64,000 nt of DNA, from contig DCTW01000004.1 in assembly GCA_002329465.1 (NCBI GenBank), forward strand, positions 2,933-66,932, read 5' to 3'. The notes under the pieces were generated by a model. It ran no database searches. It was not told the origin of the DNA and saw nothing but the letters and a program-made list of their open reading frames with translations. This DNA comes from Candidatus Woesebacteria bacterium UBA1430. Lineage in GTDB: Bacteria > Patescibacteriota > Microgenomatia > UBA8517. The translations under genes and the position numbers were made by a program. Positions 12,342 through 63,391 of this stretch are shown piece by piece. Each line of letters begins with the position of its first letter. Positions within the stretch are counted from its first letter, which is position 1.

Positions 12342-12656
12342 ATGGCAATAACAGATAAGGACATAAAAAAACTTAAAACCATTTTTGCTACTAAAGATGA
12401 TCTAAAAAGATTTGCTACTAAAGATGATCTAAAAAGATTTGCTACTAAAGATGATCTTGAAGACATAAAAGAAGAAATCAGACAAGAATTTCAGTTCTGG
12501 AGAAGCGAATTTTACGACAGAATTGATCCCATACTCAAAGAAGTCCAAGCAAGCCGAGAGGAACGAGTAATAATAAACCATCGTCTAGAAAAACACGACA
12601 ATATGCTTAAAAACCATCAAATACGTCTTCATCGCCTCGAGACGTCAAAGCCATAA
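12342..12656 (+). CDS. small coiled-coil protein with FATKDDLKR tandem repeats
   Basis: 104-aa ORF. The 27-bp unit repeated about 2.8 times encodes FATKDDLKR-FATKDDLKR-FATKDDLED, and the rest is heptad-like. No family assigned. Confidence 0.5.
   Translation: MAITDKDIKKLKTIFATKDDLKRFATKDDLKRFATKDDLEDIKEEIRQEFQFWRSEFYDRIDPILKEVQASREERVIINHRLEKHDNMLKNHQIRLHRLETSKP
12384..12460 (+). repeat. 27-bp in-frame tandem repeat, about 2.8 copies (tttgctactaaagatgatctaaaaaga)
   Basis: Copies at 12384-12410 and 12411-12437 are identical. The third copy (12438-12457) is identical for 20 nt and then diverges. Confidence 0.95.
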
Positions 12657-12687: not shown

Positions 12688-12912
12688 ACACACACTACCA
12701 CAAACGAGTATATTTACAATGCCCAAGTTGTGCTGGCTGCTTGTCTTGCCTGCCTCCGACATAAAAGAACCACCATCAACGCTCTCGTCGAATTTAAACT
12801 AAATCTTGAAAGCAACTTGCTCACACTTTGACCGGCTTCCTGCTCCTGAAGAAATAGGTAAATGCTTAGTGGCTAATTAAGGTAGGCTCGTAACCAAGTT
12901 TCTAAAACATAA
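12688..12912 (+). pseudogene. decayed DGR copy: RT 5' stub fused to Avd 3' stub (about 1.3 kb internal deletion)
   Basis: 12688-12730 (acacacactaccacaaacgagtatatttacaATGcccaagttg) parallels 14745-14787 upstream of and into the intact RT. A shifted frame reads ACLRHKRTTINALVEFKLNLESNLL, compared with RT SCRKRKRNTINALKFEQNLEKNLV, and then hits a stop at 12829-12831. 12843-12912 parallels the last ~70 nt of avd (ggctcgtaaccaagtttctaaaaca is identical) but carries indels and an in-frame TAG. Confidence 0.75.
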
Positions 12913-12970
12913 GTCTCGGCGAACGCAACATGCATAGCGGCTCCCTGAATCCTTAGTATTGTTGTTCGTG
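12912..12970 (-). repeat. truncated template-repeat remnant (TR') of the decayed DGR
   Basis: It occupies the same position relative to the avd stop as the intact TR. On the minus strand it reads NNNTKDSGSRYACCVRRD with AAC/AAT-rich codons, against NNNTKDSASRYARCIRRD in the intact TR. It breaks off after 59 nt into spacer-homologous sequence. Confidence 0.7.
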
Positions 12971-12976
12971 AAAGCG

Positions 12977-13099
12977 AAACAGACTAATTTTTAAAAACTA
13001 TCTTCATCTCCCATTACCCCATTAGATAATACTCAAAACAAGATCAAATCTATCATTCAAGTACTATCTAACGGGGTTGAAAAGATAAAATCTTAGGCT
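12977..13099. repeat. copy of the DGR spacer element with an expanded hairpin
   Basis: 12977-13015 is identical (39/39) to 16485-16523, and 13073-13099 is identical (27/27) to 16532-16558. Between the cccc/gggg arms this copy carries 52 nt (13021-13072) where the intact locus has ttt. The insert has its own imperfect inverted arms, attagataatac and gtactatctaac. Confidence 0.85.
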
Positions 13100-13142
13100 T
13101 TTTCAGTGTAGCATATAAAACAACTGATTGGTATAATTTAAT

Positions 13143-13394
13143 ATGCTGCAAAAAATCATTAAACAAAAACCTTACTTGGCCTGGGATATCAAAAATGCGG
13201 GTAATTTATCTGACGAAAGCTCACTGGAGCACATCTTGGCTTATGGCGACTGGGACGATATTCAAGAGGCAGAAAAACTCATTGGGATTTCTGAAATGAA
13301 GAGTTTATTTGAAAAACTTATCCAGAAAAAGAGAAAAAACCTTAAACCGCGTACGATCTTATATTTTCAAAATTACTTTGCCAAATATGCATGA
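13143..13394 (+). CDS. small protein upstream of and overlapping the nucleotidyltransferase gene (putative cognate partner/antitoxin)
   Basis: 83-aa ORF whose stop overlaps the downstream ATG (ATGCATGA, 8-nt overlap). A TATAAT sits at 13132-13137. Function is inferred only from the operon context. Confidence 0.45.
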   Translation: MLQKIIKQKPYLAWDIKNAGNLSDESSLEHILAYGDWDDIQEAEKLIGISEMKSLFEKLIQKKRKNLKPRTILYFQNYFAKYA

Positions 13395-14004
13395 ATCTGT
13401 TTTATCAGATCAACAAAAAAAACTTCTGTCTTTAATTCGTAAATTTTCACCTGAATTTGGTTTGGTTGGAGGAACTGCAATTGCACTTCAAATCGGACAT
13501 AGAAAATCTATAGATTTTGATCTAGCTAAAACTGGCGAAATTAAAAACGACACAATAGCTGATACCATCCGCCAGTTTACACCAATAGAGCACACGCTGA
13601 TCGATGAACCAAACGAACTTACAGTTGTTGCCAACTCTGTTAAGCTGACTTTCTTCAAATATCCCTTTAAAATCAAATTTCAAAAACAGTTTAAACAATA
13701 TATTTCTATGCCGGATTTACTTACGCTTGGTTCCATGAAAGCGTACGCCTTAGGCAGGAGGGCAAAATGGAAAGATTATGTTGATTTATTTTTTATTTTG
13801 AAAAAGTATTCGTTATCAGATTTAGTTAAAAACACTAAAAATATTTTTAAAAACGAGTTTAATGAAAAATTTTTTAGAGAACAGCTTTCTTATTTCAAAG
13901 ATATAGATTACTCAGAACAGATTGATTATGTACAGGGTTATAAAGTAGAGAACAACCTTATTAAAAATAATCTAACTCATTTAAGTCTTCAAAAAACTCT
14001 ATAA
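13387..14004 (+). CDS. nucleotidyltransferase, AbiEii/AbiGii-toxin-like (DUF1814-type)
   Basis: The start is taken at the internal ATG 13387 (MHESVLSDQQKK...), because the ORF-track start at 13309 lies inside the upstream gene. The NTase motif GGTAIALQIGHRKSIDFDL (G-[GS]...DxD) and the overall size and pattern resemble short AbiEii-family proteins. Confidence 0.65.
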   Translation: MHESVLSDQQKKLLSLIRKFSPEFGLVGGTAIALQIGHRKSIDFDLAKTGEIKNDTIADTIRQFTPIEHTLIDEPNELTVVANSVKLTFFKYPFKIKFQKQFKQYISMPDLLTLGSMKAYALGRRAKWKDYVDLFFILKKYSLSDLVKNTKNIFKNEFNEKFFREQLSYFKDIDYSEQIDYVQGYKVENNLIKNNLTHLSLQKTL

Positions 14005-14009
14005 TTTAT

Positions 14010-14269
14010 CTAATAAACATCCTCATGTTTACCGATATGATAGATAAACTATTTCACGCTTAAACACGAGCAGAATTCGGATGCTTCTGTCTACAGATAT
14101 CGACCAGTATTCCTCGCCCCCCAGCTTGTGAAGCCTCAGAAACGGATGTTTGGGATTTTTAGTTATAAGATCAAGCTGCTTAATAACTTTCTTCTTTAAT
14201 GAAGTATTGCCTTTAGTGATTTTTACAAACTCTCGTTCAAAACTTTCTGTAAGCCGTAACTTAATGCAT
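14010..14269 (-). pseudogene. RelE/ParE-superfamily toxin, apparently disrupted by two frameshifts
   Basis: Not in the ORF track. The ATG at 14269-14267 is followed by CAT TAA. One nt out of frame it reads IKLRLTESFEREFVKITKGNTSLKKKVIKQLDLITKNPKHPFLRLHKLGGEEYWSISVDRSIRILLVFKREIVYLSYR, with a stop at 14031-14029. A third frame continues with the family-typical ending YHIGKHEDVY and a stop at 14012-14010. It lies directly downstream of the RHH antitoxin gene. Confidence 0.55.
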
Positions 14270-14271
14270 GC

Positions 14272-14538
14272 TTATCTCTCTAGAAGGTACTCTTTCAACT
14301 CTTTGATGTTTGTAAATTCGACGTATTTTTTTTCTTTGATTTCGCGTTTGGCATTATCCAAAAGCACCCCGTCTCTTGAAATAGAAGAAATAGCCTCAGA
14401 ACGAGAAAAATAGGTCGCCAATAGCATGCGGATAAAATCCTGCAGGGAAATACCAATTCTATCGGCTTCTTTTGCACTATTTTGCAATATACCCTCAGGG
14501 AGATTTATCTTTACTGTTGTTGAGCTTGGTTTACTCAT
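14272..14538 (-). CDS. ribbon-helix-helix type antitoxin
   Basis: 88-aa ORF. The N-terminal segment VKINLPEGILQNSAKEADRIGISLQDFIRMLLATYF follows a beta-strand/helix/helix pattern typical of RHH (RelB/DinJ/CopG-like) antitoxins. It lies immediately 5' of the RelE-like reading frame. Confidence 0.6.
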   Translation of the reverse strand: MSKPSSTTVKINLPEGILQNSAKEADRIGISLQDFIRMLLATYFSRSEAISSISRDGVLLDNAKREIKEKKYVEFTNIKELKEYLLER

Positions 14539-14617: not shown

Positions 14618-14634
14618 GTCCGCCTCTGGCGGAC
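14618..14634. other. GC-rich hairpin (gtccgcc-tct-ggcggac) just 3' of the VR' stub
   Basis: Perfect 7-bp stem with a 3-nt loop. In minus-strand sense it lies 12 nt after the stop codon of the remnant target gene. Confidence 0.6.
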
Positions 14635-14677
14635 AAATTCTATTTTAGTCTCGGCGAACGCAACACGCGTAACGACC
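14635..14677 (-). pseudogene. 3'-terminal stub of a deleted second DGR target gene (VR' remnant)
   Basis: 14635-14658 (aaattctattttagtctcggcgaa) is identical to 16600-16623 at the end of the intact target. The minus strand reads ...RYACCVRRD*, against RYARCIRRD* in the intact target. 14647-14665 is identical to TR' 12912-12930, not to the intact TR. Confidence 0.7.
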
Positions 14678-14729: not shown

Positions 14730-14752
14730 CACACACACACACACACACACAC
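14730..14752. repeat. (CA)11 dinucleotide microsatellite in the RT leader
   Basis: Direct reading gives c-acacacacac-acacacacac-ac, ending 24 nt upstream of the RT ATG. The decayed copy has only (CA)3 at the homologous place (12688-12695). Confidence 0.95.
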
Positions 14753-14775: not shown

Positions 14776-15900
14776 ATGCCCAAGTTGCTCTCTGCCTATA
14801 TCTCCTGCAGAAAGCGCAAACGAAACACCATAAATGCTCTTAAATTCGAACAAAACCTGGAAAAAAATTTAGTCGAACTTCAGCAAAAGCTTATAAATAA
14901 AACCTACTGTCCCAGTACTTCAATCTGCTTTGCCGTGACCAAGCCCAAGCTACGGGAAATCTTTGCCGCTGATTTTACGGACAGAGTTGTCCATCACCTC
15001 CTGGTAAAAGAAATAGAAGACTATTTTGAACGCCGATTTATTTACCACTCCTATGCTTGTCGAACAAAAAAGGGTACTCACTTAGCAGCAAAAAACCTAC
15101 AAAGGGCTATATTGAAAGTTACTCGTAACCAAACACAGCCTGCATATTTTGGTCAGTTTGACGTTAAAAGCTTTTTCACCTCCATCGATAAACCTATCTT
15201 ATTTAATATGCTTTCCCAAGAAATTCAAAAAATGAAAAAGCAAAAGCTTTGGCAACAAGAAATAAATTATTTGCTTCAAACCATTATTTTTCATAACCCA
15301 GCCGATAACTACAAAACGAAGGGGAATCTAAACCTATTTGATCGCATTCCCCCGCACAAATCTCTTTTCTATGCCGATAAGACCAAAGGTCTGCCCATCG
15401 GCAACTTAACATCACAGTTTTTCGCCAATGTCTATCTTAACCATCTCGATCAGTACATCAAGCACAAATTAAAAGTAAAGTTTTACTTGAGATACGCCGA
15501 TGACTTTGTGGTTTTATGCCAAGATAAATCTCAAATTTATAAATGGCGCGAGCAGATTAATTTCTTTTTACAAGAAAAGCTAAAACTAAAACTTCACCCA
15601 CAAAAGGATAAATACGGCTCCGTTTACCAAGGTATCGATTTTGTCGGCTATTTTGTAAAACCGGATTATATGCTTTGTCGCAAACGAATTGTCAACGCCT
15701 TGAAACAAAAGCTCTATTATTTCAATCAGAACGAAAATGCCGACCCCAAAATCATGATACAAACAGTCAACTCATATTTCGGCCATTTTAGACAAGGCGA
15801 TTGCTTCCAGCTCCGACAAAATATCTACCATCGCCGTGCCCAGAAACTAAAAAAATACGCCAAGCCAGCGCCTAAATATACCCATCTGACACTTCGGTGA
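14776..15900 (+). CDS. DGR reverse transcriptase
   Basis: 374 aa. RT motifs are present, including the DGR-typical IGxxxSQ (LPIGNLTSQFFANVYL) and the YADD catalytic box (LRYADDFVVL). It sits adjacent to an Avd-like gene and a TR/VR pair. Confidence 0.92.
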   Translation: MPKLLSAYISCRKRKRNTINALKFEQNLEKNLVELQQKLINKTYCPSTSICFAVTKPKLREIFAADFTDRVVHHLLVKEIEDYFERRFIYHSYACRTKKGTHLAAKNLQRAILKVTRNQTQPAYFGQFDVKSFFTSIDKPILFNMLSQEIQKMKKQKLWQQEINYLLQTIIFHNPADNYKTKGNLNLFDRIPPHKSLFYADKTKGLPIGNLTSQFFANVYLNHLDQYIKHKLKVKFYLRYADDFVVLCQDKSQIYKWREQINFFLQEKLKLKLHPQKDKYGSVYQGIDFVGYFVKPDYMLCRKRIVNALKQKLYYFNQNENADPKIMIQTVNSYFGHFRQGDCFQLRQNIYHRRAQKLKKYAKPAPKYTHLTLR

Positions 15901-16262
15901 ACAAAATCTCAAACCTACCGCTCTATCTAAAACTTTACAAACTTATTTTGTATTTGTATCAGTTAACAGGCAATCTTCCACGCACTTATAAATACACCCT
16001 CGGACAGAATATTCTGGATTTGGCCTGGCAAACTCTAGACCATATAATTTTAGCCAATAGCCTGCCTAACAACAAAAAGACAACGCAGATCATCAAAGCC
16101 TCAGCCAACTTTGACCAGCTAAAAACCCGCCTTCGCATGGCACACGAGCTTAAGCTTATTTCCCATAAACAACAAGCCCGCCTAATCGTCCAGAATGAAG
16201 AGATTGGTAAAATGCTCTCCGGCTGGCTAAGGTGGGCTCGTAACCAAGTTTCTAAAACATGA
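15897..16262 (+). CDS. avd: DGR accessory variability determinant (Avd-like four-helix-bundle protein)
   Basis: 121-aa basic helical protein that overlaps the RT stop by 4 nt. Its size, position and sequence pattern (LPRTYKYTLGQNILDLAWQTLDHIILAN) resemble the four-helix-bundle/Avd family. Confidence 0.8.
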   Translation: MNKISNLPLYLKLYKLILYLYQLTGNLPRTYKYTLGQNILDLAWQTLDHIILANSLPNNKKTTQIIKASANFDQLKTRLRMAHELKLISHKQQARLIVQNEEIGKMLSGWLRWARNQVSKT

Positions 16263-16400
16263 GTCTCGGCGAATACATCGAGCATACCTGGAGGCCGAAT
16301 CCTTAGTGTTGTTGTTCGTGTTGCCGTTGTTCAGGTTCACGTTCCAGGCATTGCTCTGGCTATTATAGTTCTCCGTACTGGACCAATGGTTGGCAGCATC
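16262..16400 (-). repeat. DGR template repeat (TR); adenine-bearing strand is the minus strand
   Basis: 139 nt align without gaps to 16612-16750. All 15 mismatches are at plus-strand T (minus-strand A) of this copy. On the minus strand it reads DAANHWSSTENYNSQSNAWNVNLNNGNTNNNTKDSASRYARCIRRD, with 12 AAY codons. Confidence 0.92.
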
Positions 16401-16427
16401 TTTTCACCAACTTCTTCTCTAATCTAC

Positions 16428-16457
16428 AACAAGCTGGTTTTTACAAAAAAGCTTGTT
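16428..16457 (+). terminator. hairpin (aacaagct-N14-agcttgtt) followed by tggtttt; possible RT-avd terminator
   Basis: Perfect 8-bp inverted repeat read directly from the sequence. A T-rich tract follows it on the plus strand. It lies 28 nt beyond the TR. Confidence 0.35.
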
Positions 16458-16484
16458 TGGTTTTAATGCCTTTAAGGCGTGGTA

Positions 16485-16558
16485 AAACAGACTAATTTTT
16501 AAAAACTATCTTCATCTCCCATTGCCCCTTTGGGGTTGAAAAGATAAAATCTTAGGCT
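16485..16558. repeat. conserved DGR spacer element with cccc-ttt-gggg hairpin
   Basis: Two blocks (39 nt and 27 nt) are identical to the decayed copy at 12977-13015 and 13073-13099. The hairpin is at 16525-16535. Confidence 0.85.
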
Positions 16559-16577
16559 ACTTCTAGCATAGCGTCAA
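16549..16577 (-). promoter_or_regulatory. candidate sigma70-like promoter for a minus-strand TR transcript
   Basis: Minus strand reads TTGACG (16577-16572), a 17-nt spacer, then TAAGAT (16554-16549). Based on hexamer match only. Confidence 0.25.
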
Positions 16578-16609
16578 AATTATAAAAAATAAATAGTTTA
16601 AATTCTATT

Positions 16610-17644
16610 TTAGTCTCGGCGAATACATCGAGCATACCTGGAGGCCGAATCCTTAGTGCTGATGATCGTGTAGCCGTAGATCAGGTCCACGCTCCAGGCA
16701 TAGCTCTGGCTAAAAAAGTACTCCGTACTGGACCAATGGCTGGCAGCAACATTGGGTAAATTGTTAGCCGCACCATTAATATACGCCTGCATCAGCTCTT
16801 TTTGGGTAGGCAGCCTCCAGTCTGTTTTGACACCACTGCCGTCGTCAAGAGAAAGGTTTAAGCAAAACTCAGCGGCCGAAACATCATCATCCTCCACATA
16901 GGCATTAAGTGGATCCTGATTATCACAGTACTGGTTTGCAGTTCCCAGCGAGTTAAAATTACACGACTCGACCCCCACACCCGGATCTACGCGATCAGCA
17001 CCGTTTACATATTTAAATTCGTTATCTACTTGCTCATTAGTTCTATCAGTCCAATAAAGCTTTGTCCAATTGTCTTGGTAAACCTTATTTGAAAGCAAAG
17101 ATACAGTAACCTCGGGAACACCCCCAGTCACACTGGCTGGAGTGCCCCCCGGGTCTGACACCAGAGTCCAAACCCCCTCCTCATCAATATACTCATAGTC
17201 ACCGCTGTCAATAGCACATGTTCCCTCTGCTTCCTGATTATTATTCGAACACCTATAATCATCATAAGCAATATTTGCCTGAAGCTCAAACATCGTACCC
17301 GTCTTAATAGTTCTATCCCCATTCCCCGCATAAAAAGTAAACCCGCTGGGAACATCACCGGCTGTCGCCGAGCCGTCCGGCTCCCAGGCAGCCGCCTCCA
17401 TTATTCTATTCCAATATGTTCCCCAATTATTAGTCGTACTATCCCAATCCGCTGCATCAGTCACACCATAGTTATCTCCCTTACCGACCAAAAAATCGTA
17501 AGCCTGTTTCAATCTGGAATCGGCTCCCGAAAAAACACCGCCATCCGGCCTTTCCTCGTCAGCAAAGACGCTCCAACGAGCCTGATAAAGCCCGAATATA
17601 CCCAAACTTAAACAAGCCAACAAAAAAAGAAATCTTCTTATCAT
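16610..17644 (-). CDS. secreted DGR target protein with C-terminal DUF1566/C-type-lectin-fold-like variable domain
   Basis: N-terminal signal/anchor (MIRRFLFLLACLSLGIFGLYQARWSVFA). The C-terminal segment WRLPTQKELMQAY...HWSST...AW.V......RYARCIRRD resembles DUF1566 (Lcl C-terminal-like) DGR targets. The VR occupies the last 46 codons. Confidence 0.88.
   Translation of the reverse strand: MIRRFLFLLACLSLGIFGLYQARWSVFADEERPDGGVFSGADSRLKQAYDFLVGKGDNYGVTDAADWDSTTNNWGTYWNRIMEAAAWEPDGSATAGDVPSGFTFYAGNGDRTIKTGTMFELQANIAYDDYRCSNNNQEAEGTCAIDSGDYEYIDEEGVWTLVSDPGGTPASVTGGVPEVTVSLLSNKVYQDNWTKLYWTDRTNEQVDNEFKYVNGADRVDPGVGVESCNFNSLGTANQYCDNQDPLNAYVEDDDVSAAEFCLNLSLDDGSGVKTDWRLPTQKELMQAYINGAANNLPNVAASHWSSTEYFFSQSYAWSVDLIYGYTIISTKDSASRYARCIRRD
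16612..16750 (-). repeat. DGR variable repeat (VR) at the 3' end of the target gene
   Basis: Counterpart of the TR. It encodes VAASHWSSTEYFFSQSYAWSVDLIYGYTIISTKDSASRYARCIRRD. 14 codons differ from the TR, each through A-position changes. Confidence 0.92.
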
Positions 17645-56362: not shown

Positions 56363-59300
56363 TTAAAGCATCGCCCTTTCAGGCGAAACAGGTATAAGCC
56401 TACCAATAATTACATTTTCTTTCAAGCCAATAAGCTTATCAGTTCTACCCATTAATGCCGAATCGGAAAGTACATCTGTCGTTTGCTGAAAACTTGCTGC
56501 AGAAAGCCAGCTCTCGGTATACATCGCCCTTCTGGTAATCCCAAGTATTATCTGTGAAGCAGTAGCAGCCTCTCCTCCTGCCGCCAAAACTCTCTCGTTT
56601 TCCTCTTCAAATTTTGCCTTCTCAGTTTGTTCACCAGGAAGAAGATCAGTATCTCCCGCAGTAATTATCTTAACCTCATCACTCATTTTTCTAACTATCA
56701 CCTCAAAATGTCTGTCATTGATTGGTATTCCCTGTGATTCATAAACAGCTTGAAGCTCTGTTACTAAATATTCCTGTGCCGCCTTAAGCCCTTTAATTAA
56801 CAAAATTTCCTTAATATCAAGGTATCCACTTGAAAGCTGGACTCCCACTTCCACGTTCTCTCCGTCCTCTACCATCAACTTCTGGGTTTTAGGAACAAAA
56901 TACTCTCTCTCTTCAGGTGGCTTTGCACCGGAATTTCTAATAATCACATTCCACCCGACTTCTGTCTCCTCAATCTTAACTTTCCCGGAAATTTCAGCCA
57001 AAGAAGATTGAATCTTAGGGTTTCTCGATTCAAAAAGCTCTTCAACTCTAGGCAAACCTTGCGTAACGTCAACTCCCACTACACCACCGCTATGCTTAGT
57101 TCTCATAGTAAGCTGCGTACCAGGCTCACCGATAGACTGAGCCGCCAGAACTCCCACCGGAGTACCAATATCAACAAGCTTCTTGGTAGATAAATCCCAT
57201 CCGTAACATTTTCTGCAAACGCCATATCTTGAATTACAAGTCAATGGAGAATAAATAGAAACCTGTGAAATATCGGCCTTTTCAATATCCGAAAGCTTTG
57301 TTTCCTCAATAATTTCACCCTTTGCAACTATAACTTTACCCTTTGCATCCTTTATATCGTTAGCGGCTACTCTTCCGACGATCCTTCTCAAAAACACCTT
57401 TGGCCTAGAAGATCTTGTAACCAAAAGTCCCTCTTCCGCACCACAGTCTTCCTCCCTTACAATGACATCGTGGGCAACATCTACAAGCCGGCGTGTAAGA
57501 TATCCTGCATCAGCAGTCTTAAGAGCAGTATCAGTCAGCCCTTTTCTTGCTCCACGGCTTCCGTTTACATACTCATACACAGAAAGTCCCTCTCTAAAAT
57601 TAGACTTAACAGGAAGCTCAACCACCTTTCCCAAAGGATCTACAACAAGACCGATCATTCCGGAAAGCTGCTTAATCTGCTCTCTGGAAGTTCTACCCAC
57701 TTTAGCATCAATCACCATCCTAATAGACCCAATAGGATCAACAAGGTCCCAAGTTTTATCAGCTATCTCCTCTGTAGTCTCAATCCAAATACTCTCTGTT
57801 AGCCTCTTTTTCTCCTCACGGGTTATAAGCCCCTGAGCAAAATTGCTCTCCACGTCGGAAACACGCTTATTTGCCCTCTCAATAATTTTATCCTTTTCTG
57901 GATGAACTATCGCATCGGTAATTCCAAAAGAAAGTCCGGATATTGTCCCTCCCATAAAACCAAGGTCTTTAATATCGTCAATCATTCCGACAAGCTCCTC
58001 GTGAGTCACCTTACTAAAAGCATCATCAATAATTCTTTTAATAACATCCGAGCTTACATTTTCGTTAACATAATCAAATTGAGGCGGTAATATCTCATTA
58101 AACAAAATTCTTCCAGGCGTAGTTTCAATAATTTTTCCATTGTATCTTACCGATATCTTCTGTCTAAGATTAACTTTTGAAAGCCCATAAGCCAAAATCA
58201 CCTCATTAAAATCAGAAAAGATAACATTAGATTTGGTAATACGCTCGTCAAGGCTGGTCAAGAAATAAAGTCCAAGAGCTATTTCTTTAGAGGCAGGAGC
58301 AGCCATCGGGGACCCATCTGCCGGTCTTAACATATTCTTATCCGACATCATAAGCTCAATAGACTCGCGTATAGCATTTTTTGATAAAGGCAAATGAACA
58401 GCCATCTGATCCCCGTCAAAATCGGCGTTGTAGCCTTTACACACCGCCGGGTGCAAACGTATCGCATTACCCTCAATAAGTACCGGATAAAAAGATTGAA
58501 AACCAAGCTTATGAAGAGTCGGCGCCCTGTTCAAAAGAACTGGATGGTTCTTCGTTATTTCCTCAAGTATATCAAAGACTTCGGAAGGTCTCCTCTCAAG
58601 CATATTTTTTGCACTCTTCACGTTCGGGGCTATACCTCTTGAAATCATTTCACGAAGAACAAATGGTTTTGCTATCTCCAAAGCCATCTCTTTTGGAATA
58701 CCGCACTGATTTAGTTTAAGCTCAGGACCTACGACAATAACACTTCTACCCGAATAATCAACCCGCTTACCCAATAAATTTTGTCGAAATCTTCCTTGCT
58801 TACCACGAAGCATATCGGACAACGATCTCAAGGGCTGTCTTCCCCTGCCTCTTCTGGTTGCTTTTCTCTGCGATGCGTCAATCAAAGAATCTACAGATTC
58901 CTGAAGCATCCTTTTTTCATTCCTCAAAATAATCTCAGGCGCTCCAAGAGAAATAAGATGCTTAAGCCTATTATTTCTATTAATCACCCTTCGATAAAGA
59001 TCGTTCAAATCGCTCGTCGCAAACCTACCTCCTGAAAGCTGAACCATAGGCCTCAAATCCGGAGGTAAAACAGGAAGAACCTTAAGAATCATCCAAGACG
59101 GATCTATCTTTGCATCTCTCATTCCGTCAATTATCTTAAGCCGCTTTGTTAATTTTACGTATCTAGGGCCTTTACCTTTAATTTCTTTGAGTTCTTTTCT
59201 TATTTCCTTAGAAAGCTCTTCAAGATTAATGCTCTTAAGCACCTCAAGCACGGCCTCGGCACCCATCTTCACTTCAACAAAATCGGCAACGCCGTATCCA

Positions 59301-62300
59301 TAAAGCTTGTCATATTCATCCTCCGTCAAAAATCCATACTTTTTAATATCTTTAATAAGCTGTTTAATTTTCTGAAAAAGGTCATCTGTCTTCTCAATCG
59401 AACTTTTTTCTTCCTCAGCAATTGAAGTTGTCTTCTTTCGCAATCCCAAATCCACCTCACCCAACGCCAAAGCGAGCTGGTCCTTGTCTTTAACTCTGGA
59501 CTTAACACGCTCTTTTCGCTCCTTTGCATCTGTTTCTACAATCTGCTTTTGATCTCGGTATATATCTCTTATCTCCTTTATCTTCTCAACATGAATATTT
59601 TCAATATTCTTAAGCGCCTCTTTTCTCAATTCCTCATCAACACTCATAACCATATATCTGGCAAAATAAACAACCTGTTCAACCGCCCGAGGCGGAAGCC
59701 CAAGAAGAAGTGAAACTTTCGATGGTGCACCTTTAAAGTACCAAACATGGACAACCGGTGCCGCAAGTTCAATATGGCCCATTCTTTCTCTTCTAACCCT
59801 AGACTCTGTTACTTCAACACCGCACTTATCACATACAACACCTTTGTATCTGATTCTTTTATATTTACCGCAATAACATTCATAATCCTTTGTAGGACCG
59901 AATATTCTCTCGTCAAAAAGACCGTCTTTTTCAGGCTTTAACGTTCTATAGTTAATAGTCTCGGGTTTTATAACTTCACCCCTAGACCAAGCTCTTATTT
60001 CCTCAGGTGAAGCAAGTTTAATCTGTAAAGAAGTAATATCATCCAAGCTCTTAAGTACAGCCAAAGGGTCCATTTTTTGGTCACTTTTTATCTCCATACT
60101 TTCCAATTCCCGGCCATTTTCCTCTTCACCTTCCTCTTTCATTGCAACTCTTCCCTCAATATTCACGGACAATCCAAGTGAATTAAGCTCCCTAATCAAT
60201 ACTTTAAAGCTCTCAGGAACCCGTGCCTCAGGAATAGGCTCGCCCTTCACTATTGCACCAAAAGCCTGGGCACGCCCAATAATGTCATCTGACTTAATTG
60301 TAAGCATCTCTTGCAAAGCATAAGCAGCCCTATGAGCTTCAAGCGCCCAAACCTCCATCTCACCAAGTCTTTGTCCACCCATTTGTGCCTTTCCGCCTAA
60401 AGGCTGTTGTGTCACTAGCGAATATGGTCCTGTCGAACGAGCATGGGTTTTATCCTCAATCATGTGCTTAAGTTTAAGGATATAACCCACACCGACCACA
60501 GTATTCTCCTCAAAAGCTTCACCTGTCCTACCGTCAAAAAGCTTTGCTTTACCGTCAACCGGAAGCCCCGCTGATTTAAGCTCTTTTGTAATTACATCCT
60601 CGGATATACGGTCAAAAACCGGTATCGCGCCTTTCTCGCCCTTTTTGCTCAAAGCCCATCCAAGATGAGCTTCAAGAAGCTGTCCCAAATTCATACGAGC
60701 CAACACAGATAATGGAGAAATAATTATGTCAACCGGAGTTCCGTCTTCCAAATATGGCATATCCTCCTCTGGAAGAATACGTGCAATCACACCTTTATTT
60801 CCATGCCTACCGGCTAATTTATCTCCAACCATCACCTTTCTAAGCTGCGCAACTTTTACGATCACGCTTTTTATCACCCCTGGACCCAGCTCGTCACCCT
60901 TATCTTTATCTAAAATATTCACATCAACAACTATACCGCCTTCTCCATGTGGAACTCTCAAAGAAGTGTCCCTAACTTCACGAGCCTTCTCTCCAAAAAT
61001 AGCTCTTAGAAGCCTCTCTTCTGAGGTTAATTCCGTCTCACCTTTAGGCGCAATTTTTCCAACCAGAATATCGTTCGGCCCCACCTCAGCACCTATCACA
61101 ACAATCCCGTCCTCAGCAAGATTAGCGAGCTCCTGCTCGGCAACGTTTGGAATATCCCGAGTCAACTCCTCAGGACCCAATTTAGTTTCTACAACATCCG
61201 CTTGATATTCCTTAATATGAACCGATGTCAAAAGATCATCCTTTACAAGTTTGCTGGAAACCAAAATTGCGTCCTCAAATCCATATCCTTCAAAACTTGC
61301 ATAAGCTACAACCAAATTCTGCCCCAAAGCAAGCTCTCCCGATTCGCAAGAAGGTCCGTCTGCTAAAAGATCTCCCTTTTTAACCTTCGCTCCAACATTT
61401 ACTACTGCCTTCTGATTATAAGACGTTGACTGCGAAGTTCTCTTAAACTTAGTCAAAAAATAAGTTATCTTTTTACCGCCGTCGCTTATCTCAATATTAG
61501 CTCCATAATTTCCATTACTCTCAATTTTCTTTTCAAGCTTCACATCAATCCGCTCAGCATCAACATGCGTTACCGTCCCGGGATAAAAAGCCCTTATTAC
61601 CCTACCCATCGCTCCGGCCACAATCTCCTCCATACCTGTACCCACAACTGGCGAGGAAGGTCTGATCAAAGGAACGGCCTGACACTGCATATTGCTACCC
61701 ATAAGAGCTCTATTCCCATGGTCATTTGGCAAAAATGGAATCAAGGCAGCAGAAGCGCCAAACACCTGCCTGGGGGTCAAATCAATTAAATCAACCAGAC
61801 TGGAAGGCCCCTCCACAAAAGTCCCTTTATACCTATAAGCAAGTCTTTTTTCTTGGATAAACCCACGCTTATCAAACGTGACATCTGAATGAGTAATGTG
61901 ATAATTCTCTTCATCATCAGCCGTTAAATAAACCGTCTCATCAGTTACCCTTACCTCGGTTTTTCCTTTTACCTTTACCTTTTCTGCTTTTCTATAAGGA
62001 GATTCAATAAAACCATATTCATTTATATGAGCATATAAAGCAAGATATGTAACAAGTCCAATATTCGGGCCCTCAGGACTTCTTACAGGATCAATCCTTC
62101 CATATTGGGAAGAATTAATATCACGTATTGAAAACGAAGCCCTTTCTCGATTTATACCCCCAGGACCCAAAACCGATACGCGCCTGAGATTATCAATCTC
62201 GCTTAAAGGATTTGTGTCATCAAGTATCGTCGAAAGTTGATTTGACCTAAAAAACTCGTTAATTGAAGCAATCAAAGGTCTTGCATTAATAAGATTCTGA

Positions 62301-63391
62301 GGCTGAGGTTTATCGTCTGGTGAAATAAGGCTCATCTTCTCCTTAACGGATCTTTCAAGCCTCAAAAGTCCCACTCTAAATGCATGAGTAGCTACAAGCT
62401 CGCCAACTCTTCTTAATCTTCTATTCGCAAGGTGATCAATATCGTCAATTTCACCCACACCGTTTTGAAGACCGACCAAATAAGATATTGTGTTTACAAA
62501 GTCCTCTTTTATCAAAACCCAATTTTGTTCATCATTCGGAACATCCTGCCCAAGCTTCTTGTTTATCTTATATCTCCCCACACGACCCAGGTCATACCTT
62601 CTGTGATCAAAAAACAAACTATTAAACAAACCCTCGGCATTTTCCAAAACAGCCGGCTCACCCGGTCTTAACTTCCTGTAAATTTCCAAAAGCGCTTCTT
62701 CGCGAGTCGAAGATAAATCTTTTGCCAAAGTTGTTTTTATGTACTGATGTTCTTTGTTTGTATCTACATCCGTAAATAAATTCAAAATATCCTTGTTATT
62801 TTCATAACCAAGTGCACGAAGAATTGTAGCCGCATTTATTTTTCTTCTTTTATCAATTCTTGCCCATATAACATCGTTTTTATTTATTTCAAACTCAAGC
62901 CAACTACCACGAAGAGGCCTTACTTCAGCCATATAAAGCATCCTCCCGGAAGTTGTATCCTGTTCTCCCGAAAAATAAACACCGGAGGATCTTACAAGCT
63001 GATTAATGACGGTTCTTTCTATGCCGTTTATAATAAACGTCCCGGAAGCCGTCATTTGGGGGAGATTGCCCAAGAACACCTCTTGGTCAATCCTCTCACC
63101 GGTATTTTTATTAATCAGACTCGTCTGAATCTTAAACGGAGCCGAATATGTCAAACCTTTTTCAATAGCACTCTTTGGAGTAATTTCAGGCTCCTCAAGC
63201 GTATGCTCGCCCAAAACAAGCTGCCAATTCTTTCCGGTAAAATCGTCAATAGGACTTATGTGAGAAATTTCAGAAGCAATTCCCTCCGACAAAAACCACT
63301 GCCAGCTCTCTCTCTGAATAAGAGATAGATCAAGCTCTGGCAGGTTTTTCTCCTCTTTACCAAAATTACGCCGCTTATTGTTATCCGCCAT
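56363..63391 (-). CDS. rpoBC: fused DNA-directed RNA polymerase beta-beta' subunit (RpoB-RpoC single ORF, 2342 aa)
   Basis: Single uninterrupted ORF. Residues 1 to ~1080 are RpoB-like (GNRALMGSNMQCQAVPL, GEMEVWALEAH). A linker RVAMKEEGEEENGRELESMEIKSDQK is encoded at 60151-60074. Residues 1107-2342 are RpoC-like (zinc motif CYCGKYKRIRYKGVVCDKCGVEVT, catalytic NADFDGDQM). Confidence 0.9.
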   Translation of the reverse strand: MADNNKRRNFGKEEKNLPELDLSLIQRESWQWFLSEGIASEISHISPIDDFTGKNWQLVLGEHTLEEPEITPKSAIEKGLTYSAPFKIQTSLINKNTGERIDQEVFLGNLPQMTASGTFIINGIERTVINQLVRSSGVYFSGEQDTTSGRMLYMAEVRPLRGSWLEFEINKNDVIWARIDKRRKINAATILRALGYENNKDILNLFTDVDTNKEHQYIKTTLAKDLSSTREEALLEIYRKLRPGEPAVLENAEGLFNSLFFDHRRYDLGRVGRYKINKKLGQDVPNDEQNWVLIKEDFVNTISYLVGLQNGVGEIDDIDHLANRRLRRVGELVATHAFRVGLLRLERSVKEKMSLISPDDKPQPQNLINARPLIASINEFFRSNQLSTILDDTNPLSEIDNLRRVSVLGPGGINRERASFSIRDINSSQYGRIDPVRSPEGPNIGLVTYLALYAHINEYGFIESPYRKAEKVKVKGKTEVRVTDETVYLTADDEENYHITHSDVTFDKRGFIQEKRLAYRYKGTFVEGPSSLVDLIDLTPRQVFGASAALIPFLPNDHGNRALMGSNMQCQAVPLIRPSSPVVGTGMEEIVAGAMGRVIRAFYPGTVTHVDAERIDVKLEKKIESNGNYGANIEISDGGKKITYFLTKFKRTSQSTSYNQKAVVNVGAKVKKGDLLADGPSCESGELALGQNLVVAYASFEGYGFEDAILVSSKLVKDDLLTSVHIKEYQADVVETKLGPEELTRDIPNVAEQELANLAEDGIVVIGAEVGPNDILVGKIAPKGETELTSEERLLRAIFGEKAREVRDTSLRVPHGEGGIVVDVNILDKDKGDELGPGVIKSVIVKVAQLRKVMVGDKLAGRHGNKGVIARILPEEDMPYLEDGTPVDIIISPLSVLARMNLGQLLEAHLGWALSKKGEKGAIPVFDRISEDVITKELKSAGLPVDGKAKLFDGRTGEAFEENTVVGVGYILKLKHMIEDKTHARSTGPYSLVTQQPLGGKAQMGGQRLGEMEVWALEAHRAAYALQEMLTIKSDDIIGRAQAFGAIVKGEPIPEARVPESFKVLIRELNSLGLSVNIEGRVAMKEEGEEENGRELESMEIKSDQKMDPLAVLKSLDDITSLQIKLASPEEIRAWSRGEVIKPETINYRTLKPEKDGLFDERIFGPTKDYECYCGKYKRIRYKGVVCDKCGVEVTESRVRRERMGHIELAAPVVHVWYFKGAPSKVSLLLGLPPRAVEQVVYFARYMVMSVDEELRKEALKNIENIHVEKIKEIRDIYRDQKQIVETDAKERKERVKSRVKDKDQLALALGEVDLGLRKKTTSIAEEEKSSIEKTDDLFQKIKQLIKDIKKYGFLTEDEYDKLYGYGVADFVEVKMGAEAVLEVLKSINLEELSKEIRKELKEIKGKGPRYVKLTKRLKIIDGMRDAKIDPSWMILKVLPVLPPDLRPMVQLSGGRFATSDLNDLYRRVINRNNRLKHLISLGAPEIILRNEKRMLQESVDSLIDASQRKATRRGRGRQPLRSLSDMLRGKQGRFRQNLLGKRVDYSGRSVIVVGPELKLNQCGIPKEMALEIAKPFVLREMISRGIAPNVKSAKNMLERRPSEVFDILEEITKNHPVLLNRAPTLHKLGFQSFYPVLIEGNAIRLHPAVCKGYNADFDGDQMAVHLPLSKNAIRESIELMMSDKNMLRPADGSPMAAPASKEIALGLYFLTSLDERITKSNVIFSDFNEVILAYGLSKVNLRQKISVRYNGKIIETTPGRILFNEILPPQFDYVNENVSSDVIKRIIDDAFSKVTHEELVGMIDDIKDLGFMGGTISGLSFGITDAIVHPEKDKIIERANKRVSDVESNFAQGLITREEKKRLTESIWIETTEEIADKTWDLVDPIGSIRMVIDAKVGRTSREQIKQLSGMIGLVVDPLGKVVELPVKSNFREGLSVYEYVNGSRGARKGLTDTALKTADAGYLTRRLVDVAHDVIVREEDCGAEEGLLVTRSSRPKVFLRRIVGRVAANDIKDAKGKVIVAKGEIIEETKLSDIEKADISQVSIYSPLTCNSRYGVCRKCYGWDLSTKKLVDIGTPVGVLAAQSIGEPGTQLTMRTKHSGGVVGVDVTQGLPRVEELFESRNPKIQSSLAEISGKVKIEETEVGWNVIIRNSGAKPPEEREYFVPKTQKLMVEDGENVEVGVQLSSGYLDIKEILLIKGLKAAQEYLVTELQAVYESQGIPINDRHFEVIVRKMSDEVKIITAGDTDLLPGEQTEKAKFEEENERVLAAGGEAATASQIILGITRRAMYTESWLSAASFQQTTDVLSDSALMGRTDKLIGLKENVIIGRLIPVSPERAML

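Follow-up and report, generated by a model that had tools for sequence, protein, structure and literature searches.

Can a diversity-generating retroelement (DGR) whose TR is antisense to its own enzyme genes be an intact and recently used system, and if so, how might its template RNA be organised? This is the question raised by a locus in a 64,000-nt stretch of DNA (the window) from the Candidatus Woesebacteria bacterium UBA1430 (contig DCTW01000004.1). Our reading, to which we give a probability of roughly 0.85, is that of an intact, recently active Patescibacteria (CPR) DGR that diversifies the tip of a lectin-like lipoprotein, including the template-RNA mechanism proposed below. The main parts of the cassette, in window coordinates, are as follows.

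14776-15900, plus strand: DGR reverse transcriptase (RT), 374 aa (motifs LPIGNLTSQ and YADD; Pfam RVT_1, 2.2e-17)
15897-16262, plus strand: avd, 121 aa (Pfam bAvd; PHROG 'Avd protein of DGR')
16262-16403, minus strand: TR (gap-free alignment to the VR; identical copy in strain L087)
16309-16404, minus strand: adenine-mutagenised part of the TR (per-base mismatch classification)
16262-16308, minus strand: invariant, IMH*-like 3' block of the TR (identity of TR and VR)
16612-16753, minus strand: VR (the last 47 target codons plus the first base of the target stop codon)
16610-17644, minus strand: target gene, 344 aa (Pfam Lcl_C, 1e-12, residues 188-342)

The RT reading frame (14776-15900) is full length and carries LPIGNLTSQFF and RYADDF. 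Its best relative in the PDB is bRT of the Bordetella phage DGR (8ub7_A, 128.9 bits, 2.6e-36), compared to 55 bits for the group II protein LtrA and about 47 bits for retron-type RTs, and it matches PHROG 1423 at 2e-104. The neighbouring Avd protein is recognized by Pfam bAvd (6.1e-21, 75.4 bits against a cut-off of 40) and by the PHROG Avd family (1.4e-25), while the NCBIfam equivalog DivGenRetAVD reaches 75.2 bits, 4.8 below its cut-off of 80. Both protein assignments in the preliminary description, a DGR-type RT and a 121-aa Avd-like protein, are thus borne out. The GTG start of avd overlaps the RT stop codon (GTGA), as read from the sequence, which suggests that the two genes may be translationally coupled.

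Could the feature be something other than a DGR, that is, a duplication with a chance bias, or the RT of a group II intron, a retron or a defence system? An NCBIfam profile search of the RT gave no DGR-RT match, and its top match was a group II intron RT/maturase model (114 bits). That match lies far below the 300-bit cut-off and was discarded, the retron model reached 58 bits of the 235 required, and bRT leads the other solved relatives by more than 70 bits. Moreover, Rfam finds only a tRNA in the window (no intron, retron or leader RNA match), Avd is adjacent, and the probability of the adenine restriction described below arising by chance is about 5e-9. The non-DGR reading is effectively refuted.

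The wider family points the same way. Searching through the RT recovered 84 loci, 77 of which have an Avd homologue and 58 an adenine-biased TR/VR pair, and the RT homologues are labelled as Patescibacteria or Microgenomates MAGs. A scan of genome contigs with the RT gave two distant loci only (38% identity), with the leader RNA discussed below in neither.

The repeat pair itself is very regular. TR (16262-16403) and VR (16612-16753) give a gap-free pairwise alignment in which every VR position lies 350 nt beyond its TR counterpart. Over the 139 nt from 16262 to 16400, all 15 mismatches have a plus-strand T (minus-strand A) on the TR side; carrying the repeat on to 16404 brings the count to 17 of 17 on a plus-strand T of the TR (P 9e-10). 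Within the 92 nt from 16309 to 16400, 15 of 34 T differ and none of the 58 other bases does. The preliminary description had reported the same gap-free alignment and the same counts; our recount agrees with it, and per-base classification of the realigned intervals showed no mismatch at a non-adenine TR position. Its chance figure of about 3e-7 was right in direction and wrong in size, the hypergeometric probability of all mismatches falling on T being smaller (2.8e-8 for 92 nt, 4.7e-9 for 139 nt).

The remaining 47 nt (16262-16308) are identical in TR and VR, as had also been claimed, and include 10 adenines, all unchanged. At the neighbouring rate of 15/34, sparing all 10 has a probability of about 0.003, so the protected 3' block is real. 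It marks the 3' limit of mutagenesis, and calling it IMH-like, as the preliminary description did, is a reasonable if putative label. The putative IMH equals IMH* across the whole block, a situation described for other cases by Wu et al. 2018 (PMC5758913); discrimination between donor and recipient must therefore sit outside the repeat, in the flanks. The TR ends at 16262, a base that it shares with avd as the A of that gene's stop codon. In the reading frame of the target, 10 of the 47 TR codons are AAC and 2 are AAT, in line with the AAC/AAT richness noted earlier; the TR adenines are distributed 22/22/3 over codon positions 1/2/3, and 15 of the 16 mismatches inside in-frame codons are at position 1 or 2. 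There is no GC-rich inverted repeat within about 70 nt past 16612 on the minus strand, after the active VR; about 34% of DGRs have such a repeat next to the VR on its downstream side, and membership does not depend on it.

The VR is carried by the C-terminal DUF1566/Lcl_C C-type-lectin-like domain of the target, whose N-terminus has a signal or lipoprotein-like sequence (MIRRFLFLLACLS...). The AlphaFold model of the target (pLDDT 80.9) has as its best fold match the Legionella Lcl C-terminal domain, followed by C-type lectin domains, with weak E-values. The diversified part is thus predicted, from sequence and model, to be the C-type-lectin-like C-terminal tip of a surface lipoprotein.

RT and avd lie on the plus strand, and TR, VR and target on the minus strand, convergent with them. 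Since the mutagenised adenines are on the minus strand, the TR is antisense to its own enzyme genes. A plus-strand TR RNA mutagenised at U was considered and ruled out: the VR is in frame on the minus strand, the minus-strand adenines fall at codon positions 1 and 2, and the leader covaries on the minus strand. The order is target-VR, leader, TR, (avd), (RT), with both avd and RT inverted relative to the TR. This arrangement recurs, as the TR is on the strand opposite the RT in 16 related loci; the exact layout (RT plus, avd plus, TR minus, VR minus) is found again in L005, L008 and L020, and L003, L006 and L007 are compatible with it. That TR and RT may be on different strands was reported by Wu et al. 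2018 (PMC5758913). The opposite-strand placement of TR, VR and target, the structured 208-nt spacer between TR and VR, and a decayed second cassette were all absent from the preliminary description.

Has this DGR been used recently? In a strain series the answer comes from L087, which is 97.4% identical to the window over 7.8 kb. Its TR is 100% identical, its spacer has one difference and its avd is almost unchanged, yet its VR differs at 18 positions (13%), 18 of 18 of them at TR adenines. Across five strain versions of the VR there are 27 variable positions, 26 of which are TR adenines. An identical TR combined with 18 adenine-only VR differences supports recent activity, in the sense of activity since the strains split and not of activity today. 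The earlier statement that the system looks recently active is upheld, on better grounds than the distance between TR and VR on which it relied. A literature search for a related complete genome (CP055307 / GCA_013374835) found no paper naming CP055307.

These differences between TR and VR and between strains could also be the legacy of past activity in a cassette that looks intact but is now dead. The locus does decay readily: L088-L091 keep only a truncated cassette, in L085 and L086 toxin-antitoxin genes replace TR, avd and RT, and the window itself has a dead second cassette, in two parts upstream of the intact one (12688-13104 and 14618-14671).

12688-13104, plus strand: decayed second cassette, lacking the RNA core and most of the TR
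12688 to about 12830, plus strand: RT 5' fragment
12847-12911, plus strand: avd 3' fragment
12912-12971: truncated TR'
12977-13104: spacer'
14618-14671, minus strand: orphan VR-end remnant and hairpin region

The VR-end remnant (14635-14671) resembles TR' more than TR and adjoins a GC-rich hairpin, GTCCGCC-TCT-GGCGGAC (14618-14634), and the covariance model R1 of the leader RNA (see below) has no match in the decayed cassette. The intact cassette presents a different picture. Its RT and Avd frames are full length with catalytic motifs, TR, spacer and avd have hardly changed between the window and L087 while the VR has moved at adenines alone, and its RNA core still scores 51.6 bits with R1. 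We therefore regard a fossil DGR as quite unlikely.

With an intact and recently active DGR as the preferred reading, the next issue is the template RNA. The spacer between VR and TR holds a structured leader, which we describe on the minus strand.

16398-16491, minus strand: structured RNA core abutting the TR 5' edge (covariance model R1)
16487-16480 with 16409-16402, minus strand: helix P1 (covariation)
16478-16475 with 16471-16468, minus strand: hairpin P2 (covariation)
16457-16451 with 16434-16428, minus strand: hairpin P3 (part of the RNA core)
16489-16507, minus strand: 5' strand of the proposed helix P0 (RNAduplex)
16247-16266, minus strand: 3' strand of the proposed helix P0 (coordinates from the duplex output)
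16514-16545, minus strand: upstream hairpin (single-sequence fold; motif conservation in alignment A2)
16549-16577, minus strand: promoter-like site TTGACG-17-TAAGAT (consensus scan only)

The core is the sole R1 match in the window (E 1.3e-8). In 564 kb of sequence R1 has 47 matches, nearly all of which abut the TR 5' edge on the TR strand. At least 14 of the matched loci are absent from the seed; the P1 seed sequences were picked by a helix-finding heuristic, and these non-seed matches are the only independent check. The proposed pairs of P1 and P2 covary: 92.5% of cells are paired in a MAFFT alignment (score 0.809) and 96% in 43 distinct model matches (score 0.821), and the controls give 0.27 in shuffles and 0.11-0.18 with slid partners, compared to 0.81-0.82. 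Whatever the cassette layout within the RT clade, P1 and P2 sit immediately 5' of the TR and on its strand, and P2 is followed by an invariant AU and an A-rich stretch.

Other approaches did not pick up this structure. Folding the spacer as a single sequence gave no significant result (z = -1.48), and RNAalifold predicted no pairs when 12 loci were aligned with MAFFT over the full RNA, from leader through TR to tail. The latter result arises because the helix strands are misaligned in the whole-RNA alignment, so P1 and P2 were retested on the shorter alignment and the covariance model, and P0 on duplex energies. A search of Rfam 15 gave no leader match in the window or in 20 related loci (at gathering thresholds and, for 7 of these loci, also at E-values up to 1), and no conserved structure on the 5' side of the TR is described in the DGR papers that we consulted. 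We did not adopt a perfect alternative helix of 10 bp between UAUCUUUUCA (about 16546-16537) and UGAAAAGAUG, which adjoins the TR, since L005 and L008 lack a counterpart; the RNA could take it up as a second conformation.

Helix P0 would connect the leader to the far end of the TR. Within its 5' strand, 16493-16489 (AGUCU) would bind the final 5 nt of the TR and 16507-16497 the flank 3' of the TR, which leaves a single base, G16488, between P0 and P1. The 3' strand is made up of those 5 TR nt and a further 15 nt that are antisense to the stop and final codons of avd, and it would set the minimum 3' extent of the template RNA. In the window P0 is weak (-14.1 kcal/mol), whereas the duplexes at the same position are strong in L005 (-28.5) and L008 (-27.7) by RNAduplex. 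Across loci, cognate duplexes average -19.4 kcal/mol versus -13.3 for non-cognate ones (P = 2.5e-10), and pairing with the TR side exceeds pairing with each locus's own VR flank (-19.6 versus -15.5, P = 9e-4); the AT-rich P0 of the window barely beats its VR-flank pairing (-14.1 versus -12.8 kcal/mol). The idea of a priming nucleotide supplied by an internal loop in P0 was dropped, as the loop is not conserved.

Further upstream there is a conserved AAGAU motif and then the predicted upstream hairpin, in which 16545-16538 pairs with 16520-16514 and encloses CCCC (16535-16532) paired with GGGG (16528-16525) in the single-sequence fold. The second hexamer of the promoter-like site coincides with a motif conserved in L005 and L008. 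Lying about 35 nt upstream of P0, this site may be where the template RNA starts.

Taken together, these elements suggest the following mechanism. A minus-strand RNA of about 300 nt would be made from the promoter-like site (16577-16549) or by read-through from the target gene, and would contain the structured leader, then the TR, and then no fewer than 15 nt that are antisense to the last part of avd. RT and Avd would bind the structured leader, and P0 would place the TR 3' end beside P1, so that the TR forms a loop between neighbouring duplexes, as it does in the Bordetella phage RNP. Synthesis of cDNA would begin near G16267, misincorporate opposite adenines and end at P1 (about 16404-16409). 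The cDNA would then replace the VR, homing through the identical 47-nt 3' block.

How does this compare with the only DGR studied biochemically? In BPP-1, a strand located downstream of the TR first binds the TR 3' end, on the primer side, next enters the stop duplex beside the TR 5' end, and finally leads into a short stem-loop and unpaired adenosines that are conserved (10.1101/2023.10.23.563531). The present locus shares with BPP-1 the RT family, Avd and adenine-specific mutagenesis, and apparently also the looping of the TR between a pair of adjacent duplexes, the second of which leads into a short stem-loop and unpaired adenosines. The organising strand of BPP-1 (Sp 47-81), however, lies 3' of the TR, while the strand that we take as equivalent would lie 5' of it. 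BPP-1 (mtd-avd-TR-brt) is also unlike this locus in its target fold partner, Mtd, and in its phage context. By this analogy, the template RNA in the Patescibacterial DGR lineage may be a circular permutation of the Bordetella phage DGR RNA, a tentative proposal to which we give slightly less than even odds. If true, cDNA would be primed from a nucleotide of the 5' leader (about 16488-16489), with G16267 as the first templated base.

An alternative is that the RNA is of the Bordetella type after all, with a functional Sp 3' of the TR (here antisense avd) and a 5' structure that is merely a promoter, leader or stability element. The Bordetella Sp does lie 3' of the TR and primes cDNA synthesis, putative stem-loops were found downstream of the TR in 207 of 278 DGRs, CPR members included (both 10.1101/2023.10.23.563531), and L005 has a 7-bp stem just 3' of the TR. 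In the window, we found no Bordetella-type structured spacer 3' of the TR; the covarying structure is 5' instead. What follows the TR on its 3' side changes among relatives with the 5' domain (the RT start and coding region in some, and antisense avd, the antisense RT 3' end or sense avd in others), so no common 3' element could be conserved across them. Typical relatives have only about 20-70 nt from TR to RT start, compared to about 200 nt from avd to TR, and the 5' strand follows the Bordetella order (TR-3'-end pairing, a 1-nt linker, pairing just upstream of the TR, a short stem-loop, unpaired A-rich bases). We consider the Bordetella-type organisation rather unlikely. Under the proposed permuted organisation, the organising strand would be 5' of the TR and the sequence 3' of it would be free to vary, which would explain why RT and avd are tolerated on the other strand.

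With its RT motifs, an adenine-confined TR/VR pair, a VR at the 3' end of a lectin-fold target gene, and Avd, the locus is confirmed as a further instance of the well-known DGR class, in a tiny-genome CPR/Patescibacteria bacterium. The Legionella pneumophila DGR, ordered target-avd-TR-RT, keeps all its parts on a single strand, and its homing is efficient only with a GC-rich hairpin behind the VR; the present cassette is convergent and has no such hairpin after its active VR. The resemblance to that system (LdtA; category 'd' / CLec2, Wu et al.) is in the short lipoprotein-like target, the VR in a C-terminal DUF1566-type lectin fold, and Avd. Known CPR DGRs (the CPR set of Wu et al. 2018, PMC5758913; DGR clade 2 of Roux et al. 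2021, PMC8144416) are likewise chromosomal with a single adjacent target and Avd, and show little or no non-adenine change; they differ in that here avd and RT are both inverted relative to the TR. The leader can be set beside the RT-associated RNA motifs RT-1 to RT-19 (Weinberg et al. 2017, PMC5737381), structured RNAs next to bacterial RT genes, some proposed to serve DGRs, of which RT-10 lies between TR and RT in BPP-1; it differs from them in being without any Rfam 15 match.

CPR DGRs have already been catalogued in the hundreds, and one more instance alone is routine. The strain series at a single site (an intact cassette with a changing VR, a stump, and a toxin-antitoxin replacement) is useful for the rates at which hypermutation is gained, used and lost. 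The 5' RNA domain, with its apparently permuted connectivity, makes a testable prediction about DGR priming and stopping beyond the Bordetella model, and is relevant to a recent proposal that even distantly related DGRs have downstream spacer elements in common. The design of compact engineered DGRs could also draw on it, with the template kept apart from the enzyme genes as a unit of its own.

TR (16262-16403, minus strand) and VR (16612-16753, minus strand) form a direct repeat, gapless in pairwise alignment, with an offset of 350 nt. The preliminary description had reported 15 mismatches over 139 nt (16262-16400), all on minus-strand adenines, and realignment gives the same result: the TR copy has a plus-strand T (minus-strand A) at each of them. 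A recount of the 92-nt variable window also agrees, with changes at 15 of the 34 minus-strand adenine positions and at none of the 58 other bases. By chance, mismatches would be confined to a single base class with a probability of 2.8e-8 (92-nt window) or 4.7e-9 (139 nt); when the repeat is extended to 16404, 17/17 mismatches are on TR adenines. The 3′-proximal 47 nt (16262-16308), described earlier as invariant, are indeed identical in TR and VR. Since the 10 adenines in this block are all kept (P ~0.003 at the neighbouring rate), the block is truly exempt from mutagenesis. The putative IMH and IMH* (the invariant 3′ blocks of VR and TR) are identical here; a difference between them is an optional DGR feature. 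Read in the frame of the minus-strand ORF 16610-17644, TR has 10 AAC and two AAT among its 47 codons. Its adenines are spread over codon positions 1/2/3 as 22/22/3, and 15/16 in-frame mismatches are at position 1 or 2.

The target protein’s 90%-identity cluster has six members, and their differences concentrate at codons with a TR adenine. In particular, the related locus L087 is collinear with window positions 23641-15867 at 97.4% identity. Its TR is identical over 142 nt, with one difference in the spacer and two in avd, and its VR differs at 18/139 positions, all of them TR adenines. Across five strain versions, 26/27 positions deviating from TR are TR adenines. Such a pattern is characteristic of mutagenic retrohoming after the strains had separated. 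The earlier suggestion of recent activity is therefore borne out, on stronger evidence than the TR-VR distance originally cited.

The protein components are those expected from the preliminary description, which had noted an RT with DGR-type motifs and an Avd-like protein. The RT ORF (14776-15900, plus strand) carries LPIGNLTSQ and YADD. Among solved structures its best match is the Bordetella phage DGR RT (8ub7_A, 128.9 bits, E 2.6e-36), compared with 55 bits for the group II intron protein LtrA and ~47 bits for retron-type RTs. NCBIfam gave no DGR-RT match, its top model being a group II RT/maturase at 114 bits against a cut-off of 300. The GTG start of the avd ORF (15897-16262) overlaps the RT stop codon. 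On profile matches, the product of this ORF is Avd: it scores 75.4 bits with Pfam bAvd (cut-off 40), 1.4e-25 with the PHROG ‘Avd protein of DGR’ and 75.2 bits with the NCBIfam equivalog (cut-off 80). The target protein combines a hydrophobic, lipoprotein-like N-terminus with a C-terminal Lcl_C/DUF1566 domain (Pfam). Its AlphaFold model (pLDDT 80.9) retrieves the Legionella Lcl C-terminal domain at the top, followed by C-type lectin domains, with weak E-values. DUF1566 targets constitute category ‘d’ (CLec2), whose type example is the Legionella lipoprotein LdtA (Wu et al. 2018, PMC5758913), and a target of this kind is common to the Legionella DGR and the element described here. The RT start codon is preceded, at a distance of 24 nt, by a (CA)11 microsatellite (14730-14751), which is (CA)9 in L003 (1745-1762), a related locus with a 90% identical RT. 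Slipped-strand changes at this repeat could switch RT expression.

The plus strand encodes RT and avd; TR, VR and target are on the minus strand. Only there are the mutable bases adenines, so the template would have to be an RNA of the minus strand, converging on avd. TR ends on the A of the avd stop codon. We gathered 84 loci via RT similarity and scanned them for A-biased repeats and for Avd, finding a TR/VR pair in 58/84 and Avd in 77/84. TR and VR are downstream of RT on the opposite strand in 16 of the 84. The exact layout (RT+ avd+ TR- VR-) recurs in loci L005, L008 and L020, and L003, L006 and L007 are compatible with it. Other relatives show RT+ TR- avd- VR- or RT+ avd- TR- VR-, and the one-strand order avd-TR-RT is that of more distant relatives. 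The opposite-strand layout is not peculiar to one contig, and Wu et al. (2018) had already noted DGRs whose TR and RT lie on different strands.

Conserved blocks appear in the TR-VR spacer when the window, L005 and L008 are aligned. In most loci, a segment ending 8-13 nt before TR forms a helix of ~8 bp (P1) with a segment ~90-130 nt farther upstream, and a short hairpin (P2) directly follows the upstream strand. Nineteen such regions were aligned with MAFFT. P1 and P2 together have 12 pairs, which are 92.5% paired in this alignment and all show both-side changes. Covariation is 0.809, compared with 0.27 after shuffling and 0.12-0.18 with partners slid. As these seed regions were picked and trimmed with a helix-finding heuristic, a covariance model built from them (R1) was run as an independent check over both strands of the 564 kb of collected sequence. 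This yielded 47 matches at E < 1; nearly all of them abut the TR 5′ edge on the TR strand, and among them are at least 14 loci that the seed did not contain. The only match in the window is at 16398-16491 (minus strand, 51.6 bits). The 43 distinct matches are 96% paired, with a covariation of 0.821; P2 is followed by an almost invariant AU and an A-rich stretch, and an invariant AAGU precedes the P1 3′ strand. No Rfam 15 family covers this 5′ RNA, whether in the window or in any of 20 related loci, and a literature search of limited reach found no description of this domain.

Just 5′ of P1, a further set of bases is complementary to the last bases of TR and its 3′ flank (helix P0). The sequences vary by locus, for example CAUCAUG/CAUGAUG, CAUCAUC/GAUGAUG, GAUCACU/AGUGAUC and AACCACU/AGUGGUU. 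Duplex energies average -19.4 kcal/mol for 30 cognate pairs versus -13.3 kcal/mol for 870 non-cognate pairs (Mann-Whitney P = 2.5e-10). Per locus, pairing with the TR side is also favoured over the locus’s own VR flank (-19.6 vs -15.5 kcal/mol, Wilcoxon P = 9e-4). In the window, duplex prediction places P0 as follows:

16507-16497 with 16257-16247, minus strand, predicted P0 pairing
16493-16489 with 16266-16262, minus strand, predicted P0 pairing

At -14.1 kcal/mol, this AT-rich helix is weak and gains only 1.3 kcal/mol over pairing with the VR flank, so its support here comes mainly from homology with L005 and L008, where P0 is a strong helix of 15-16 bp (-28.5 and -27.7 kcal/mol, respectively).

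From 5′ to 3′, the leader strand is predicted to pair first with the 3′ end of TR and, after a single base (G16488), with the segment just upstream of TR; it then continues into a short stem-loop and conserved unpaired A-rich bases. The same succession of paired segments, stem-loop and A-rich bases is found in the Bordetella phage RNA. There, Sp 47-81 forms a template:primer duplex with TR 117-129, a two-base linker and a ‘cPRT Stop’ duplex with the segment upstream of TR, followed by a short stem-loop and adenosines docking in the duplex, with TR looped out between the duplexes (Handa et al., bioRxiv 10.1101/2023.10.23.563531). However, the organising strand is 3′ of TR in the phage and 5′ of TR in this lineage, which makes the order of parts a circular permutation. 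We infer functional equivalence with Bordetella Sp from topology and covariation. That the 5′ module works in this way, as a permuted form of the phage RNA, is a tentative reading to which we give slightly less than an even chance (about 0.45). On its 3′ side, TR may be followed in different relatives by the RT start codon, by avd in antisense or sense orientation, or by the antisense RT end; this free variation fits the permuted order. Handa et al. scanned other DGRs from 40 nt upstream to 100 nt downstream of TR (10.1101/2023.10.23.563531), and a 5′ domain would have escaped so short an upstream scan. In the avd-leader-TR-RT relatives (L027, L058, L050, L071 and others), the RT start codon falls within the P0 3′ strand, and the TR end carries a purine-rich, ribosome-binding-like stretch; template RNA folding might therefore also gate RT translation in these one-strand loci.

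As for the start of the template RNA, a promoter-like TTGACG-17-TAAGAT is found on the minus strand at 16577-16549, some 35 nt before P0. The second of its two hexamers falls on a motif that L005 and L008 conserve. No terminator-like site was found between the target gene and the leader, so the candidate promoter and read-through from the target are equally possible origins. A weak terminator-like hairpin with a T run occurs inside the RT 3′ end (15857-15871, minus strand), ~390 nt past TR; if used, it would make the template RNA antisense through all of avd.

The locus also records a history of decay and loss. Upstream of the intact cassette, a decayed second one (12688-13104) retains fragments of the RT 5′ end and the avd 3′ end, a truncated TR (TR′, the last 60 nt of TR) and a spacer that is interrupted. 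Its spacer pieces share 94-96% identity with 16485-16563, whereas the coding fragments reach only ~70-80% identity; the R1 scan found no RNA core in this stump. In L020 (2006-2845), a cassette of the window type has a second RT gene starting right behind its target gene, so tandem cassettes also occur in other members of the RT clade. Between stump and intact RT lie an AbiEii-like gene (13309-14004), a CopG-like gene (14272-14538, minus strand) and, within 14618-14671, an orphan VR end of 37 nt. The latter is closer to TR′ than to the active TR, keeps the VR-type flank AAAATAGAATTT and lies next to a GC-rich hairpin (GTCCGCC-TCT-GGCGGAC). A downstream GC hairpin is an optional DGR feature, and none accompanies the active VR. 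In loci L088-L091, among them the complete genome CP055307.1 (901,682 bp), target and VR are joined at window 16532 directly to a stump 99.85% identical to window 13099-12428, and RT and avd are absent. VR is identical in these four samples, which may come from one strain sampled repeatedly and hence are no proof of a frozen VR. L085 and L086 are collinear with the window as far as the TR 5′ edge (16403) and no farther; from there to 12874, a DUF433/DUF5615 pair (L085 7243-7932) takes the place of the window sequence, and TR-avd-RT is lost. These states at the same site, in strains 88-98% identical, make the DGR a presence/absence polymorphism in the population. Toxin-antitoxin-like genes sit within the DGR locus (window 13143-14538) or in its place (L085). 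Elsewhere in the window, three tandem 27-nt repeats (12384-12464, two identical) encode FATKDDLKR in a 104-aa ORF (12342-12656), and a very long ORF of 2342 aa spans 56363-63391 (minus strand).

Altogether, the defining DGR features that could be tested were found, the two exceptions (the downstream GC hairpin and an IMH differing from IMH*) being optional. The element has a Legionella-like DUF1566 target and belongs to an already catalogued Patescibacterial DGR lineage; public databases already contain identical RT and target proteins from a 162-kb contig. What might surprise a specialist is the 5′ position of the RNA module and the permuted order of its parts.
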